The translations under genes were made by a program, and so were the position numbers. From a candidate division WOR-3 bacterium (GTDB lineage: Bacteria > Hydrothermota > Hydrothermia > LBFQ01 > DSFT01), in the NCBI GenBank assembly GCA_965649115.1, contig CBFGJN010000049.1:1-14273 (forward strand): DNA of 14,273 bases, written 5' to 3'. Every line of letters begins with the position of its first letter. Within the stretch, counting starts at the first letter, position 1. A model generated the notes under the pieces. It ran no database searches, was not told where the DNA came from, and worked only from the letters and a program-made list of their open reading frames with translations. Below are positions 2,768 to 13,317 of the stretch, piece after piece.

Positions 2768-3502
2768 CTATGAGCCATTTTCCAATCTATAAGCTAGTAT
2801 TTGAGGTAAATCACTTTCCAAAATTTTCCTTTTTGTTTTTTGAACATCATAATCAACTCTAATAATTTCAAATGTAAAGCTATTTAAATCAAGAACAGCA
2901 AAGCTTGCTCGATAATCTCCATCTCTTGGTTGTCCAACACTTCCAGGATTAAGCATATATTGGTAGTTTTCATCTAATTTGTACTTTTCAAATGGATTAG
3001 GAATAATATGCTCAATATATGAAAATTTCTTTTTATAAATAGCAGGAATATGTGTATGACCAATTAATGTTATAAAATTGTCAAGGTATTGGAAGTAAAT
3101 TCTCGCATCATTAACATTTAAAATATATGTCCAATCAAGAGGATATTTGGGACAAGCATGGACAATATAAATATCTTTAAAGTTTTCTTCAAGTTTTAAG
3201 GAAGATAAAAAAATTTTATTTTCCTCTTCTAAAACACTTAATGTCCATATCATTGAACTTCTTGCTACTGGTGAAAAATTTTTAATTATGTTTTCATCAA
3301 TAACTGCATAATCATGATTTCCCATTACGATAATGTCAGCTTCTTTTTTTATAATTTCAACTACTTCATTAGGATTTGGTCCATAATTTATTAAATCTCC
3401 AAGACAAATAATTTTATCTATCTTTCTTTTTAAAATTTCTTTAAGAACAATTTCAAGAGCTTCAAGATTTCCATGAATATCCGATAAAATTGCTATTTTC
3501 AT
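2768..3502 (-). CDS. Metallophosphoesterase (calcineurin-like)
   Basis: SDIHGN, LGDLINYG, GNHD, GHTH and NPGSVGQPRDG motifs. Confidence 0.93.
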   Translation of the reverse strand: MKIAILSDIHGNLEALEIVLKEILKRKIDKIICLGDLINYGPNPNEVVEIIKKEADIIVMGNHDYAVIDENIIKNFSPVARSSMIWTLSVLEEENKIFLSSLKLEENFKDIYIVHACPKYPLDWTYILNVNDARIYFQYLDNFITLIGHTHIPAIYKKKFSYIEHIIPNPFEKYKLDENYQYMLNPGSVGQPRDGDYRASFAVLDLNSFTFEIIRVDYDVQKTKRKILESDLPQILAYRLENGS

Positions 3503-3957
3503 TCGTTTTCGGGAAGTGGAACTTGCGTCCTAATAAAGAAATCTTTTCTTAAAGGATGTCCTGGAAATTCGTCCCATAATAAAATCCTTTCTAAATTTGG
3601 ATGATTCTTAAATGTTATCCCAAACATATCATAAACTTCTCTTTCAAGCCAATTTGCACCTTTATAAATTGAGGTGATACTATCCACTTCTTCATTTTCA
3701 TCCACTTGAATTTTTACCCTAATTCTTTTATTTTCATCTAAGTTTCTTAAATGATAAACAACTTCAAATCTCTTTTCTTTTTTATTTAACCAATCAACAG
3801 CAGTTAAATCACAAAGCATCTTAAAATTAAAATCTTCATAAAGAATTCTAATAGCATCTAAAAGATGCTCTCTTTTTACAATAATAACAGGCATATCTAT
3901 GTTTTCTCTATATTCTAAGATAAAGTCTTTTAATTTTTCCAAGATTTCTTTAAGCAT
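3499..3957 (-). CDS. nuoC: NADH-quinone oxidoreductase subunit C
   Basis: LCDLTAVDW, RFEVVYHL, ANWLEREVYDMFGITFKNHPNLERIL and GHPLRKDF, the complex I 30 kDa subunit signature. Confidence 0.93.
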   Translation of the reverse strand: MLKEILEKLKDFILEYRENIDMPVIIVKREHLLDAIRILYEDFNFKMLCDLTAVDWLNKKEKRFEVVYHLRNLDENKRIRVKIQVDENEEVDSITSIYKGANWLEREVYDMFGITFKNHPNLERILLWDEFPGHPLRKDFFIRTQVPLPENE

Positions 3958-7841: not shown

Positions 7842-8624
7842 ATGAAAATTCTTCCAATAGAATTAGCAAAAGCTATTTTAAATCGTGAAACAGGTTTATT
7901 TATTTTTGAAAATTTGAAGAATGAATCAATAAGAGTTTTTTTGATAAATGGTGAAATTGTAAAAATTGACAGTTTATATGGAGAAGGAGAAAGTGAGATA
8001 GCAAGATTATTTTTGTGGGGTGAGGGTTATGTAATTAAAAGACCAATTCCAAAAGAATATGAGAATTTTATTCCTAATAAAAAATATAATCCGAATGGTT
8101 TTTTAAAAATTTTAATTGAAAGCATTAAGAAAGAAATTAAATTGAAAGAATTTGAAATATCAACAAATCAAATAATTTTTTATGGCTTTTTAAGTTTTTT
8201 AAACAACAATGCTCCATTTTTAGTATATAATAAGGATGAATGGATTGGATTTTCAAAAATTGTTGAAAGTCTCTCAAAAAGTATAAAAAATTCAACAGTT
8301 TTAATTTCAAATAAGTACTTGCTGTTCTTCTCAAATGATGTTGATTTTATATTTTCAGAAAATGGTTATATTGATTTTAATAAAGTTGATGAAGAAAATA
8401 TATTTGAACCATTTGATTATAAAGTTTTTGTTTTTGGTCCAGAAGAATATAAAAAGCTTATAATTCCATTTGAAAGAGAACCTTCATATAAAGGCTTATT
8501 TGAAAATTTAAAAATGGATGATTACACTATTGGTTTTTTCTTTAAGAACGATGAAGTTGATATTTTTATTAAAGACTTAAAAGAAGAATTCAAAAACTAT
8601 CCTAATTGTATATTATGGAAGTAG
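7842..8624 (+). CDS. Hypothetical protein with DUF4388/PATAN-like N-terminal domain
   Basis: RETGLFIF...VFLINGEIVKI...GESEIARLFLWGEGY resembles the DUF4388 pattern; the rest is unrecognised. Confidence 0.55.
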   Translation: MKILPIELAKAILNRETGLFIFENLKNESIRVFLINGEIVKIDSLYGEGESEIARLFLWGEGYVIKRPIPKEYENFIPNKKYNPNGFLKILIESIKKEIKLKEFEISTNQIIFYGFLSFLNNNAPFLVYNKDEWIGFSKIVESLSKSIKNSTVLISNKYLLFFSNDVDFIFSENGYIDFNKVDEENIFEPFDYKVFVFGPEEYKKLIIPFEREPSYKGLFENLKMDDYTIGFFFKNDEVDIFIKDLKEEFKNYPNCILWK

Positions 8625-9163
8625 AGGCAAAATTCTTAATTGATAATCCAGATAAATTAGAAAGCTTCTTAAATAATTTTGTAAAACCTATTGAACTTGA
8701 AATTGATGACATTTATTTTGATAATAATCAATTAAATCTCTTAAAAAAGTACAATTGTGCTTTTAGAATTAGAAAAGAAAATGAAAAATTTTACTTTACA
8801 ATAAAAAGGAAACTTCAAGATGATAGTAATTTATTTAAAAGAATTGAAATTGAAAAAGAAATACCAAAAGATATTTATGAAAAGCTTAAAAGAAGTGAAT
8901 TTTATTTTTATTTTGATGACATTGAATTAAAAATTTTTCCAATAATTGAAATTCTTTCAAAAAGAAAATTATATCTAATTGAAAATTTAAAAGTTTCAAT
9001 TGATAAGGTTATTTTTAATGATAGAACAACTATGAATTTTTTAGAAATAGAAGGAAATGAAAATGAGATATTAGAGTTTACCAACAATATAACAAAACAT
9101 TTTAATTTGATTGAATGGAAAATTTCAAAACTTGAAACAGCTTTAAAATTTTGGGACTTATAG
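8615..9163 (+). CDS. CYTH domain protein (class IV adenylate cyclase / triphosphate tunnel metalloenzyme)
   Basis: N-terminal ExExK (MEVEAKF), DIYFD, FRIR, TIK, R.EIE, KR..Y, SIDKV and FLEIE. ATG 8615 preferred over TTG 8606. Confidence 0.9.
   Translation: MEVEAKFLIDNPDKLESFLNNFVKPIELEIDDIYFDNNQLNLLKKYNCAFRIRKENEKFYFTIKRKLQDDSNLFKRIEIEKEIPKDIYEKLKRSEFYFYFDDIELKIFPIIEILSKRKLYLIENLKVSIDKVIFNDRTTMNFLEIEGNENEILEFTNNITKHFNLIEWKISKLETALKFWDL
9140..9151 (+). promoter_or_regulatory. GCTTTAAAATTT putative -10 element for the RT leader/ncRNA
   Basis: Exact 12-mer within the last codons of the CYTH gene; predicts a start near 9156, just before the structured element. Confidence 0.45.
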
Positions 9164-9240
9164 AAGGGGCGAATTTGAATTCTCTATAATCTTTTAACCT
9201 TCTGTGGGTTTAAACCCACAGAGGCGGTCCGCCCCTTCTA
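9161..9240 (+). ncRNA. Candidate RT-associated structured RNA (nested inverted repeats)
   Basis: Perfect 11-bp IR TAGAAGGGGCG (9161-9171) / CGCCCCTTCTA (9230-9240) enclosing the perfect 22-nt palindrome TCTGTGGGTTTAAACCCACAGA (9201-9222); GC-rich in AT-rich context; ends 6 nt before the RT ATG. Structure is seen; RNA function is inferred. Confidence 0.55.
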
Positions 9241-9246
9241 CATTAA

Positions 9247-10659
9247 ATGAATGATAAAAATTGGGCTTTTTCAAAGGATGACTTATTGGAATTAAAATCA
9301 TTATATGATAAAAAAATTGAAGAAGTAAAGGAATTTAGAACTTATTCCAAACCTCAAAAAAAGTTACTTTCAGATTATCAGAAAATTTGTCAAATTTTGA
9401 AATTTTTAGATGAACTCAAAGAAGAGGAATTTTTAAATAAATTGAATAAAGGAGAATTTAAATTTCAAATTGGAAGAGTTGGATATTTTACGAGTAAGTA
9501 CTTTTTAAAATCAAGGGTAGTTTTGAATTTAATTAGATTAAATAATAATCAGATAGATAAAAAATACATTGAAACTCAAATAGCCTTGAAACTAATTGCC
9601 AACAAGCTAATGAAAAATAAAATCGTTGAAAAGCCAAAAACAAGAAAGTCCGTTATTAGAAACTTAATTGAATTTTTGAGAAAAAACATAAATGAATCCG
9701 AGAATTTTTATCTAATAAGGGCTGATTTCAAAAGTTATACTTTAAATATAAGGAGAAATAAGGTTATAGAAATTTTAAGAAACAAGGATGTTCCTGATTT
9801 TATAATTAAAATGATTAAAGAATTTATAAATTATCCTTCAATTGAATCAAAAATTTTTAAAAACTATCCATTAGCTAAATTCTTTAATGAAATTGGCTAT
9901 CTTAGTGATTATTCTTTGGATGGGGATTATAAATGTATTTTAGGTTATGAAGGTATTTTATCAGGGACACCTTTAAGTAATGTTTTGGGCATGTTATACT
10001 TACAAGATTTTGATAATTTTATTAGTGAAAAGATAGTTTCAAACGGATTTTATGAAAGGTACTTTGATGATTTAATTATAATATCTTCGCCCAATCCAAA
10101 GGAAATTAAAAAACAAATAAACGATTATCTTTCAAATCTATATCAAATAAATAAAAAAGATATTGCAAGGATTTTTGATATTGGAGAAAATGGAAATTTA
10201 GGAAGAGTTCTTGAAAAAGGATTTGAATTCTTGGGATATAAGTTTCAGAAAGAAAATAATAGAATTAAAATTTCAATTAGATATAAAACCTTAAAGAAGT
10301 TTGCTTATAAGTTCATTTACGAACATAGAGTTATAGAAGGAAAGTACATTGAATGTCTGGTGGCTAAAAATTATTACTTGTTCTCTTGGTTAAATAGTTT
10401 TATTTTTATTAATGACCATAAACTTCTTGAAGAAATTTACAAAAAAATAATTCTTCCTAATATTTATTCAACATTAAAAAACTACTTAAAATTCCAAAGG
10501 AAAGATACAAGCGAAGATCATTTAAAAGGATATTTTAAAGAAATAAAAAAATTTTATAAACCTGCTTCAATTTTAAGAATTTTGAGAAAAGGAAATAAAC
10601 AAAAAATTATTGAAAAATTAAAAAATCTAAAAGTTCTAATTGAAGAAATAATTGGGTGA
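9247..10659 (+). CDS. Reverse transcriptase, Drt3a/UG3-like defence-associated RT (stand-alone)
   Basis: YLIRADFKSY (Asp160), GILSGTPLSNVLGMLYL, YERYFDDLIII (YxDD 272-275) and FEFLGYKF. Segments KTRKSVIRNLIEFL and KISIRYKTLKKF recall Drt3a. RT call firm, subfamily by eye only. Confidence 0.85.
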   Translation: MNDKNWAFSKDDLLELKSLYDKKIEEVKEFRTYSKPQKKLLSDYQKICQILKFLDELKEEEFLNKLNKGEFKFQIGRVGYFTSKYFLKSRVVLNLIRLNNNQIDKKYIETQIALKLIANKLMKNKIVEKPKTRKSVIRNLIEFLRKNINESENFYLIRADFKSYTLNIRRNKVIEILRNKDVPDFIIKMIKEFINYPSIESKIFKNYPLAKFFNEIGYLSDYSLDGDYKCILGYEGILSGTPLSNVLGMLYLQDFDNFISEKIVSNGFYERYFDDLIIISSPNPKEIKKQINDYLSNLYQINKKDIARIFDIGENGNLGRVLEKGFEFLGYKFQKENNRIKISIRYKTLKKFAYKFIYEHRVIEGKYIECLVAKNYYLFSWLNSFIFINDHKLLEEIYKKIILPNIYSTLKNYLKFQRKDTSEDHLKGYFKEIKKFYKPASILRILRKGNKQKIIEKLKNLKVLIEEIIG

Positions 10660-10661
10660 AA

Positions 10662-10779
10662 TTTAGAGTAAGAGTTTTGACTTTAAAAAATCCTATATTT
10701 TTAATAGAAACAGCATTTTGGAATTTATTTTTTGAAGTCATTTAACACCATTTACTAAACATAGCAGATTTTCGTTGCT
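10662..10779 (+). ncRNA. Candidate structured RNA or long stem-loop downstream of RT
   Basis: 14-bp stem TGACTTTAAAAAAT (10678-10691) / ATTTTTTGAAGTCA (10727-10740) with one G-U; weaker outer pairing 10662-10671 with 10752-10759; small hairpin 10763-10779. Confidence 0.35.
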
Positions 10780-10788
10780 TTAAAATTT
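10777..10788 (+). promoter_or_regulatory. GCTTTAAAATTT putative -10 element for hsdR
   Basis: Exact 12-mer; TAAAAT core lies 17 nt before ATG 10804. Confidence 0.45.
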
Positions 10789-10803
10789 TAGAACAAATGG
10801 ATT

Positions 10804-13317
10804 ATGCTTAATGAAGCTGATACAAGGGCAAAATTGATAGATGATAAATTAAGGGAAGCTCGTTGGACAGAAAATTTAATATCGCGTGAACTGACTATAA
10901 TGGAAGGTAAAATAATTGATGAATATGGAAATAGAGGGAAAGTATTAAGACCTGATTATATTCTATTTTTAGAGAACTATTTTCCAATAGCTGTTGTAGA
11001 AGCAAAAGCAGAATCAGAAGACCATAGATCTGGGATACAACGGGCAAAAAAATATGCAGAAATTCTTCAAGTACCATTTGCTTATTCAACAAATGGACAC
11101 AAAATTGAGGAATACGATTTTATAAATAAAAAACAAACAACTCTTGATAGATTTCCATCACCTGCTGAATTATGGGAAAGGTATTCTCTTTGGAAATTTG
11201 GAAGAGTTTTACCATTTGATAAGAACAAAAACCCGCTTCTTTATCCTTATAATATCTTTACGAATAAAAAGCCAAGGTATTATCAAATTGCTGCAGTAAG
11301 AAATGTAATTGAAGCATTTTTGAAAGGGCAAAAGCGTATACTACTAACTATGGCTACTGGCACGGGTAAGACGGAAGTTGCTTTTTGGGTAGTGTGGAAG
11401 TTATACAACACGGGTAAGATAAGGAGGGTGCTTTATGTTGCGGATAGAATTATGTTGAGAGATCAAGCTTATAATCGTTTTCAAGCTTTTGAGAGTAGTA
11501 GAGAAATAATTAAGGAAGGAAATGCTCCAAAAATAAGAGATATTTATTTTGCAACATATCAAAGTCTTTACTCTGAAAGAAATGGAAAAAGGCTTTATCA
11601 GGAATATGAGGAGAATTTCTTTGATATGATTATTATTGACGAGTGTCATAGGTCAGGTTATGGAAGGTGGAAGGAAATTCTTGATTATTTTAAAAATGCT
11701 GTTCATTTCGGTATGACCGCAACACCCAAGAGAGATGATAACATAGACACATATGCTTATTTCGGCAAGCCCGTATATGTTTATAGTTTAGGGCAGGGCA
11801 TAGAGGATGGATTTTTAGCCCCTTATAAGATCCACAAAATCTTTACAAACATAGACAAAAATGGTGGTATTTCTCTTAAAGATTTAGCAAGTGAAGGAGC
11901 GGCGATTGAGGTTCCACAAGGTTTAGAGGTAAAGGATTTTTATTCATTGGGAGATTTTGAAAAGGAAATTATACTACCTGATAGAACTGAAATGATGGTC
12001 AAAAAGTTAGCCGAGATATTAAGAATTTACGGACCTACTGAAAAAACGATAGTCTTTTGTGTAACAAAAGAACATGCTTTGGATGTTGTTAAGATATTAC
12101 AAAATGAACTTGGTAGAGATATTGCTTCCTTAGGAATAAATGCTGATGAATTCGTTGTTAGGGTTGTTGATGAGGAACCAAATGCAATAGAACTTGCCCG
12201 AAAAATGGCTGATCCTGAAAGTCGAACGCCAATAATAGCGGTTACAGTTGATCTTTTAAGTACAGGTATTGATATTCCGCCTGTAAAGAACATAGTTATA
12301 ATGAGACCCATTTCTTCCGAGGTTTTGTTTAAGCAAATTATTGGCAGGGGAAGTAGAATAAGCGAAAGTGTTGGTAAGTTCTTTTTTAGAATAATAGATT
12401 TTGTAAATGCTACTAGGCTTTTAGACCCATGGGATATTCCACCACAAGAGTATATCCCCGATACCCCAGAAGGTCCGTTTGATCATTTTATAAGGGGTAA
12501 GGTTGTAGATGAAGAGGATGGGACTCCAATCGCGAACGCGAGGATAACCGCAAAATTTGGGGTAAATATGGTTAAACCGGCAAGGACGGATGAAAATGGT
12601 GAATTTCTCATGGATGGTTGTCCTCGTTCATCTGTAAAGATCAGGGTTGAGGCTGGGGATTATAAAATGAGAGAGGTAAGCGTAAATCCAACCCCTTCAA
12701 AGGATAATGTTTCCGTAGTTATCGAACTAAAAAGGAAAAAACCAAAAGAAGGAAAGATAAGGGTTATGGGAATAGATGTTTATATAGAGGAAGAATTGTA
12801 TGTTGAGGTGGAAGGGGTAAAGTTAAACAGTGCCCAATATATTCAATATGCTAAGGAAAATTTTAGAAAAAAGGTTATAACCTTGGAGGATTTGAGGAAA
12901 ATTTGGATAAATGCGGCGAGTAGGAAAAGGTTTTTGGAGGAATTGAGGAAAAAGAGTATAAATCCAGAATTGATAGGGCAGATTATTAAAAGACCAGATG
13001 CGGATGCTTTTGATGTTATAGCCCATGTGGCCTTTGACGTCCCAATTTTGAGTAGGGATGATAGGGCAGTTGCATTGTTAAACAAAAAATATAATTTTAT
13101 AAATTCCTTTAATGAAACTGCTAGGAATGTTTTGCTTAATCTTATAGAAAAGTATAAACTTGGTGGTGTTGATGAAATTTCAGTTGATGCTCTCAAAACA
13201 CCAGATATTAATAGAAGTGTTGGCGGTTTAAAACAAATAATTAATTCTTTCGGAGGAAAGGAAAATCTTATAAAAACACTTGAAGAATTGATAAAAAGCC
13301 TTTACGATTTAGAGTAG
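10804..13317 (+). CDS. hsdR: Type I restriction enzyme R subunit (EcoAI/EcoEI-like) with inserted beta-sandwich domain
   Basis: NEADTR, PD...VVEAK nuclease motif, STNG, RYYQ, MATGTGKT, DECHR, MTATP, LLSTGID, FKQIIGRGSR, and an EcoEI-type C-terminus (DAFDVIAHVAFD...LSR). Confidence 0.95.
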   Translation: MLNEADTRAKLIDDKLREARWTENLISRELTIMEGKIIDEYGNRGKVLRPDYILFLENYFPIAVVEAKAESEDHRSGIQRAKKYAEILQVPFAYSTNGHKIEEYDFINKKQTTLDRFPSPAELWERYSLWKFGRVLPFDKNKNPLLYPYNIFTNKKPRYYQIAAVRNVIEAFLKGQKRILLTMATGTGKTEVAFWVVWKLYNTGKIRRVLYVADRIMLRDQAYNRFQAFESSREIIKEGNAPKIRDIYFATYQSLYSERNGKRLYQEYEENFFDMIIIDECHRSGYGRWKEILDYFKNAVHFGMTATPKRDDNIDTYAYFGKPVYVYSLGQGIEDGFLAPYKIHKIFTNIDKNGGISLKDLASEGAAIEVPQGLEVKDFYSLGDFEKEIILPDRTEMMVKKLAEILRIYGPTEKTIVFCVTKEHALDVVKILQNELGRDIASLGINADEFVVRVVDEEPNAIELARKMADPESRTPIIAVTVDLLSTGIDIPPVKNIVIMRPISSEVLFKQIIGRGSRISESVGKFFFRIIDFVNATRLLDPWDIPPQEYIPDTPEGPFDHFIRGKVVDEEDGTPIANARITAKFGVNMVKPARTDENGEFLMDGCPRSSVKIRVEAGDYKMREVSVNPTPSKDNVSVVIELKRKKPKEGKIRVMGIDVYIEEELYVEVEGVKLNSAQYIQYAKENFRKKVITLEDLRKIWINAASRKRFLEELRKKSINPELIGQIIKRPDADAFDVIAHVAFDVPILSRDDRAVALLNKKYNFINSFNETARNVLLNLIEKYKLGGVDEISVDALKTPDINRSVGGLKQIINSFGGKENLIKTLEELIKSLYDLE

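Follow-up and report, generated by a model that had tools for sequence, protein, structure and literature searches.

Class-2 UG/Abi reverse transcriptases (RTs) are RTs without an additional known domain (PMC9226505). In class-2 DRTs, the template is a loop of a non-coding RNA (ncRNA), bounded by the bases of its stems (10.64898/2026.06.29.735271, PMC13174585, PMC12489045). Drt3a (UG3) is among the ncRNA-templated enzymes (PMC13174585). DRT10/UG17 comprises an RT, an ncRNA and a SLATT protein and makes protein-primed tandem-repeat DNA, and DRT2 and DRT9 have a two-part architecture, an RT with a structured RNA upstream of it and no protein partner that is conserved. Here we describe an RT gene (P0001) in a stretch of DNA of 14,273 nt and 28% G+C, contig CBFGJN010000049.1 of a candidate division WOR-3 bacterium, which is called the window throughout. 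The gene is an intact open reading frame (ORF) of 470 codons at 9247..10659 on the + strand, and directly upstream of it lies a structured RNA-like element (9161..9240, +).

The residue equivalent to F143 of the GsI-IIC RT is a conserved Phe or Tyr, reported to be 'present in all RTs'; its ring stacks against the deoxyribose and keeps ribonucleoside triphosphates (rNTPs) out (10.1101/2021.05.13.443781). In DRT7, a Tyr has this gate role (10.64898/2026.02.16.706125). The aromatic gate is treated as universal in RTs and has so far been removed by mutagenesis only. A printed description of a UG- or DRT-type RT without it was not found; the supplementary alignments of the DRT10/UG17 preprints, which lay outside the search, may show such variation. 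The words 'steric', 'aromatic' and 'dNTP' do not occur in Mestre et al. (2022). On the alignments below, the RT of the window belongs to a new, unclassified family near the class-2 DRTs, with a putative ncRNA, that is defined by the loss of this otherwise universal sugar gate.

The sugar-gate position

Motif A of the RT reads D160-F-K-S-Y164-T165-L-N167-I168 (residues 160-168; 9724..9750, +). It holds the catalytic Asp and, at the steric gate five residues further on (D+5), a Thr encoded by ACT (9739..9741, +). Motif B, G236-I-L-S239-G240 (residues 236-240; 9952..9966, +), is the counterpart of G-x-P-Q-G in Drt2 and UG17, and Ser239 (TCA, 9961-9963, +) occupies the Gln position. Motif C, Y-F-D274-D275 (residues 272-275; 10060..10071, +), provides the catalytic aspartate pair. 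Further downstream, all four residues of F328-L-G-Y331 (10228..10239, +), which we take to be a primer-grip-like motif, are invariant in 18/18 family members. A preliminary description of the window placed motifs A, B and C exactly, within an interval (9724-10071) that spans D160 to D275. It read the Thr at the gate and the altered motif B as two pocket changes pointing to altered substrate choice rather than simple decay.

The family was gathered by protein search alone and consists of 18 distinct full-length sequences, with 30-51% identity to the query. These were aligned with 35 classified outgroup RTs (Drt2 10, UG17 7, Drt3a 10, UG4 3, unclassified 5), and the alignment has no gaps from the catalytic Asp to D+8. 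At D+5, the family has Thr in 17 members and Ala in one, whereas the outgroups have Phe or Tyr in 34 and Gly in one (P0100). The preceding residue, D+4, is Tyr in all 18 family members and Phe or Tyr in 34 outgroups, with Cys in the other. A wider set of 98 non-family hits, aligned to the family profile, includes 71 that cover motif A, where D+5 is Phe (41), Tyr (29) or Gly (1). Additionally, all 17 further members of six 90% clusters carry Y-T. The loci from metagenomes and metagenome-assembled genomes (MAGs) were retrieved with a pattern containing Y-T, so that their count of 16/17 Thr is biased and is not used as evidence.

The rest of the catalytic apparatus is retained. D160, F161, Y164, N167, G236, G240, R271, D274 and D275 are invariant across the 18 members, and the finger residues K88 and R90 are conserved. 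The family shares D160, R271, D274, D275, G236, G240 and the L-G of F328-L-G-Y331 with all outgroups. Its own features in motif A are F161 (Ile or Val in 33/35 outgroups), T165, N167 (mostly Ser elsewhere) and R170 (mostly His elsewhere).

Judged from this alignment, T165 marks the family and is an exception among related RTs. Because D+5 is Thr in 17/18 and Ala in 1/18 members, some of them only about 30% identical, what appears to be selected here is a small residue and not one particular side chain; the single Ala member suggests that size, and not the hydroxyl, is kept. The Thr is thus no private mutation, and the preliminary description's concern that close homologues might keep the aromatic residue and PQG is answered by relatives that hold Thr or Ala at D+5 and Gln in 0/18. 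The described groups differ at this site. An F/Y gate occurs together with PQG in 7/7 UG17 members and FF together with PQG in 10/10 Drt2 members, and Drt3a keeps Phe or Tyr at D+5 in 10/10. The family resembles the laboratory mutants F155V of Moloney murine leukaemia virus (MMLV) RT, Y256A of tcTERT, Y717A of hTERT and F143A of GsI-IIC, which likewise carry a small residue at this position of motif A. Unlike in those mutants, the small residue is natural and family-wide and is accompanied by changes at D+1, D+7 and D+10.

P0100, the outgroup member with Gly at the steric gate (D-V-E-S-Y-G), is an RT unrelated to the family, with a weak likeness to UG26 (123 bits). From this sequence, UG-type RTs may have lost the gate on more than one occasion.

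The second pocket change fares differently. Within the family, the Gln position (239) is Pro in 14 members, Ala in two, Thr in one and Ser in the query only; Gln occurs in none. Among the outgroups it is Gln in 20/35 (Drt2 10/10, UG17 7/7, Drt3a 2/10, UG4 0/3, unclassified 1/5), and among profile-aligned non-family hits in 48/96. On these counts, S239 is a strain-private variant, and the site tolerates different residues across this region of the RT tree. Since it varies both among family members and among their relatives, a Ser in place of the Gln contributes little. Aligning homologues, the check that had been proposed for both residues, therefore upholds the conservation of T165 (Thr 17/18, Ala 1) and finds S239 in the query alone; of the two signs, the Thr is exceptional, and the loss of Gln, common in the nearest RTs, carries little weight.

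The two codons are reliably read. Contigs from a run of another sample (X2) cover 9699-10057 with 0 differing letters, and because they are identical over both the Thr165 and the Ser239 codons, neither residue is an assembly slip. A further set (X4) looks like the same data as X2, and another (X1) also agrees but may be the window's source. One contig joint, from 9448 to 10594, has 21 letters on its short side and was taken as spurious. A reading of the gene as an RT relic that is decaying or has lost catalysis, or of its unusual residues as assembly errors, could be argued from the failure of Pfam RVT_1 to find the protein and from the in-frame stops that the L008 and L015 copies carry in the matched frame. 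However, all 18 sequences, some with as little as 30% identity, share the catalytic and structural residues without variation, the ORF is intact, the contigs of another sample match it over both codons and the fold is predicted with confidence, which leaves such explanations barely credible. The earlier statement that this is not simple decay accords with the retention of the Thr, the three aspartates and F328-L-G-Y331 to about 30% identity and with a predicted fold that is a complete RT.

Fold and classification

Pfam RVT_1 (PF00078) gives no match to the query RT at E up to 0.1, and a precomputed PF00078 match exists on one distant family member, P0008. Thirteen RT models of PADLOC do match the query, led by RT_UG17 (3e-20), Drt3a (5.4e-19), RT_UG4 (1.2e-18) and Drt2 (1.1e-12); among the matches listed at E up to 1, there is none to Drt9. 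The NCBIfam scores are far under their cut-offs (Drt3a 65.7 vs 200, Drt2 51.6 vs 390). Among solved structures, the query matches the G2L4 RT by sequence (2.3e-5), and the family profile matches Drt2 (9c0i, 4.9e-12). In the HMMER alignment to G2L4, Y164-T165 is paired with F-F, and motif B of the query is aligned to motif B of both G2L4 and Drt2.

An AlphaFold2 model built from the 18 family sequences has a predicted local distance difference test score (pLDDT) of 92.4 and a predicted template modelling score (pTM) of 0.89. It shows a complete RT plus helices, with fingers, palm, thumb and a helical C-terminal extension. Foldseek matches the model to the G2L4 RT (9d4s) at E 1e-10. VIA-align superposes it on the GsI-IIC RT (6ar1_D) with Z 22.5 and a root-mean-square deviation of 3.7 over 362 aligned residues, on substrate-bound DRT9 (9vma) with Z 17.5 and on DRT2 (9c0i) with Z 15.1. 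GsI-IIC and G2L4 are thus the best structural matches, and motifs A to C align with theirs. Unlike these two enzymes, the query has no intron RNA (Rfam) and no maturase domain: a Pfam scan of the protein finds no further domain and no GIIM, and Rfam shows neither a group II intron RNA nor a retron (msr/msd) RNA in the window. The protein has the motif-A Asp, the xxDD motif and the fingers-palm-thumb fold of the RT superfamily, while RVT_1 detection and the F/Y gate are missing. From the model, it looks like a working RT.

The family is small. A word-indexed search of 5.8 billion proteins returned 7 proteins, one of them the window's own. An exhaustive search of 1.84 billion representatives returned 14 proteins at E up to 1e-30, namely the window's own and 13 full-length relatives. 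In that search the weakest full-length relative scores 1.7e-43 and is followed by three fragments and then a gap, and other RTs start at E 3e-7. PADLOC was also used to classify 47 non-family hits; 42 of them are true Drt2, UG17, Drt3a or UG4 members (about 250-530 bits), and the other five are unclassified. The query reaches 70.5 bits with the UG17 model, where true UG17 members reach 340-494. With some 70 bits against about 250-530 for true members, the query therefore falls outside Drt2, UG17, Drt3a and UG4, as judged by the PADLOC 2023 and NCBIfam 2026 models only. In a quick maximum-likelihood tree of 53 sequences, the family forms its own branch (length 1.48) with a support of 100 in the Shimodaira-Hasegawa-like approximate likelihood ratio test (SH-aLRT), and Drt3a is weakly joined to it (SH-aLRT 78).

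By these scores and this tree, the family is an unclassified lineage near the class-2 UG/DRT RTs and in none of the described UG groups tried. Three features agree with UG/Abi class 2: an RT without an extra known domain, closest relatives in class-2 groups and a putative associated structured RNA element. The likeness to DRT10/UG17, the best PADLOC model, extends to an RT-only protein of similar size, to RNA encoded upstream (putative here), to ISN/LSN after motif B and to an [FY]xDD motif C. However, the family is a clade separate from UG17, and no SLATT protein is present among the 14 window proteins scanned or among 26 neighbour proteins of 10 homologous loci, unlike in DRT10. Drt3a/UG3 is the second-best PADLOC model, and its motif-B Gln is also largely gone. 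A second RT ORF that could correspond to the DRT3 partner (Drt3b/UG8) is absent from the window.

Copies of the family are named 'hypothetical protein' in databases, and Pfam RVT_1 misses the query, so standard annotation pipelines overlook the family.

Consequences for nucleotide choice

Weak or absent discrimination against ribonucleotides would be the most likely consequence of the small D+5 residue, and we put its probability at roughly 0.45. ORF 9247-10659 would then encode an active polymerase of RT fold whose partner is the structured RNA immediately before it (9161-9240). The A+U-rich loop between the two helices of that RNA would most likely supply the template, as in DRT2, DRT3a, DRT9 and DRT10. 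The pocket of the whole family appears to have lost the aromatic residue that elsewhere stacks on the deoxyribose and clashes with the 2'-OH, and the natural Thr or Ala would open its 2' side. At cellular ratios of nucleoside triphosphates (NTPs) to deoxyribonucleoside triphosphates (dNTPs), the product would be RNA-containing or RNA, and not pure DNA.

The laboratory mutants give this proposal its precedents. In MMLV RT, F155V increases the binding and incorporation of NTPs (PMC8857657). In tcTERT, Y256A raises the kpol for rGTP 1,490-fold and lowers the Kd 12-fold (PMC7274783). Altered substrate choice, whether rNTP incorporation or a restricted range of nucleotides, which had been proposed from two residues, is plausible on the strength of Thr165 by itself. 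A bolder version is that an RT-fold enzyme gave up its gate in order to use ribonucleotides and became an ncRNA-templated RNA or mixed RNA/DNA polymerase, an RT-derived cellular RNA-dependent RNA polymerase with its own small template RNA; we consider this unlikely.

Several observations weigh against ribonucleotide use. A gate might be re-formed if the invariant Y164 (D+4) or F161 (D+1), which is peculiar to the family, occupied the vacant space. In other RTs, enzymes mutated at the gate incorporate ribonucleotides but are poor at elongating RNA. Moreover, rNTPs inhibited translocation in both wild-type and Y717A human telomerase (PMC7274783), so that losing the gate is not in itself enough to turn an RT into an RNA polymerase. 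In GsI-IIC, F143A mainly weakened the binding of unpaired dNTPs and non-templated addition, which points to a different selective reason for a small residue (10.1101/2021.05.13.443781). The loop of the RNA element yielded no template motif. Finally, the hosts come from hot springs, where RNA products would be chemically less stable.

The first of these points can be developed into an alternative in which the product is ordinary DNA and the enzyme a divergent ncRNA-templated DRT-like RT, its pocket rebuilt with Y164, F161, residue 238 or a family-specific insert between motifs A and B as the gate. This is a possible explanation, to which we give somewhat less credence than to ribonucleotide use. 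The remodelling of motif A as a block, with F161, T165, N167 and R170 all family-specific, would fit co-adapted packing, and all characterised class-2 relatives make DNA (PMC12632851, PMC12489045, PMC13174585). In the model, the stretch of ~75 residues from D160 to G236 has five short helices that could reach the pocket. On the other hand, Y164 is not new. Because the outgroups also have Phe or Tyr at D+4 in 34/35, it is, at the sequence level, not a family-specific compensation. No indel between the Asp and D+8 shifts the register, and F161, on the strand after the catalytic Asp, would probably face away from the pocket.

The behaviour of GsI-IIC F143A supports another reading, in which the small residue was selected for weaker nucleotide binding, the choice of sugar being unchanged, and unpaired or first nucleotides would be bound poorly. 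This mutant keeps templated extension at a rate about two-fold lower, loses non-templated addition and needs high dNTP (10.1101/2021.05.13.443781). An RT of this kind would be idle at basal dNTP or avoid non-templated addition, and would fire only when pools rise, for example during phage infection; DRT9 is activated by substrate concentration (PMC12489045). However, the argument is by analogy, the sequence data separate it from no other reading and the use of rNTPs would remain compatible with it. We regard it as improbable.

Whichever sugar is used, a natural lineage that has all catalytic residues but a small gate residue allows a direct test of the purpose of the gate in RT-based systems. 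If ribonucleotides are used, the products of defence-type RTs would extend from DNA to RNA-containing polymers. The family also adds to the catalogue an RT and ncRNA module of thermophilic origin that is possibly thermostable.

The upstream element and genomic surroundings

The structured RNA-like element at 9161..9240 is 80 nt long and is a candidate RT-associated ncRNA or template. Its G+C-rich outer helix of 11 bp pairs 9161-9171 with 9230-9240 (+) and encloses an inner hairpin at about 9199-9224 (+) together with an A+U-rich single strand of 27 nt. The fold of 9161-9240 has a minimum free energy of -35.7 kcal/mol and a z-score of -6.46, with 0/200 shuffles as stable, though z-scores taken locus by locus on regions picked by their stem are biased. 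A test with 300 shuffles of the upstream sequence is free of this bias. In the window, 0/300 shuffles of the upstream 170 nt reach such a stem, and in 8/11 loci the long-range helix is reached by <=1/300 shuffles, with stem sequences that differ. L001 (91/300), L013 (143/300) and L015 (32/300) do not pass this test.

A like architecture stands upstream of the RT in L001-L004, L006, L009, L010, L012 and L013, again with differing stem sequences. Across loci, the element is 60-86 nt long and ends 1-74 nt before the RT start codon, and the junction preceding the inner hairpin is usually A-A-C-C. It is much shorter than the RNAs of DRT2 and DRT9. Rfam gives 0 matches at gathering score within the window. 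MAFFT with RNAalifold recovers 6 outer-helix pairs only and no usable consensus, and the structure rests on the per-locus folds and shuffles. An A-B-A' direct repeat, as in DRT10, is not detected in the RNA loops of 11 loci (summed longest 36 vs a shuffled mean of 34.6, p 0.35). Downstream of the RT, the intergenic region 10660-10803 has an unremarkable fold (z -0.24) that supports no 3' RNA; elsewhere the RT gene is followed immediately by another gene. The upstream element could equally be a control element of the 5' untranslated region that hides the ribosome-binding region.

A sigma-70 and terminator scan of 8900-9400 places nothing at the element; it returns 4 promoter-like sites vs 3.3 expected and 0 terminators. 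The box GCTTTAAAATTTT at 9139-9151, about 10-15 nt upstream of the outer helix, is common to the low-G+C loci L004, L006, L009 and L015. In the window it sits inside the 3' end of the CYTH ORF described below and was not called by the sigma-70 scan. The box may act as the promoter of the RNA.

The gene is sporadic in distribution. It was found in 1/272 genomes of the window's phylum, the one being the window's own genome, which holds a single match to this RT, and also in three Aquificota MAGs and 14 metagenome contigs. Most of the runs containing the window's sequence are metagenomes from hot springs. Some copies appear interrupted: L008 has a stop within the matched frame of the RT, and in L015 the RT is split into two ORFs. 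In L004 and L005, no full RT ORF with a common start codon was found. These may be pseudogenes or assembly errors.

In the other loci, diverse housekeeping genes flank the RT, and a tblastn comparison of six neighbours from the window with all loci returned 0 hits, with no sign of a conserved protein partner. Because protein neighbours are not conserved, the conserved unit is the RNA element plus the RT; the class-2 systems DRT2 and DRT9, which stand alone, are built likewise. The type I restriction-modification genes hsdR (10804-13317, +), directly downstream of the RT, and hsdM (from 13328) lie next to the module, and nothing else in the context hints at a role in defence.

On the other side of the module, immediately upstream, 7842-9163 (+) encodes a 260-aa protein without a family match and a 185-aa CYTH-domain protein (2.8e-12), neither of which adjoins the RT in other loci. 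The HsdR protein (10804-13317, +) contains a CarboxypepD_reg-like domain of prealbumin fold (residues 563-645) between its helicase and EcoEI_R_C domains. In the Aquificota MAG locus L002 (3072-6950), the RNA and RT module lies between a NuoC/D gene and a metallophosphoesterase gene, and the homologous pair of NuoC/D and metallophosphoesterase domains is adjacent at 2768-3957 in the window. This arrangement suggests that the 1.6-kb module of RNA and RT is a self-contained insertion.

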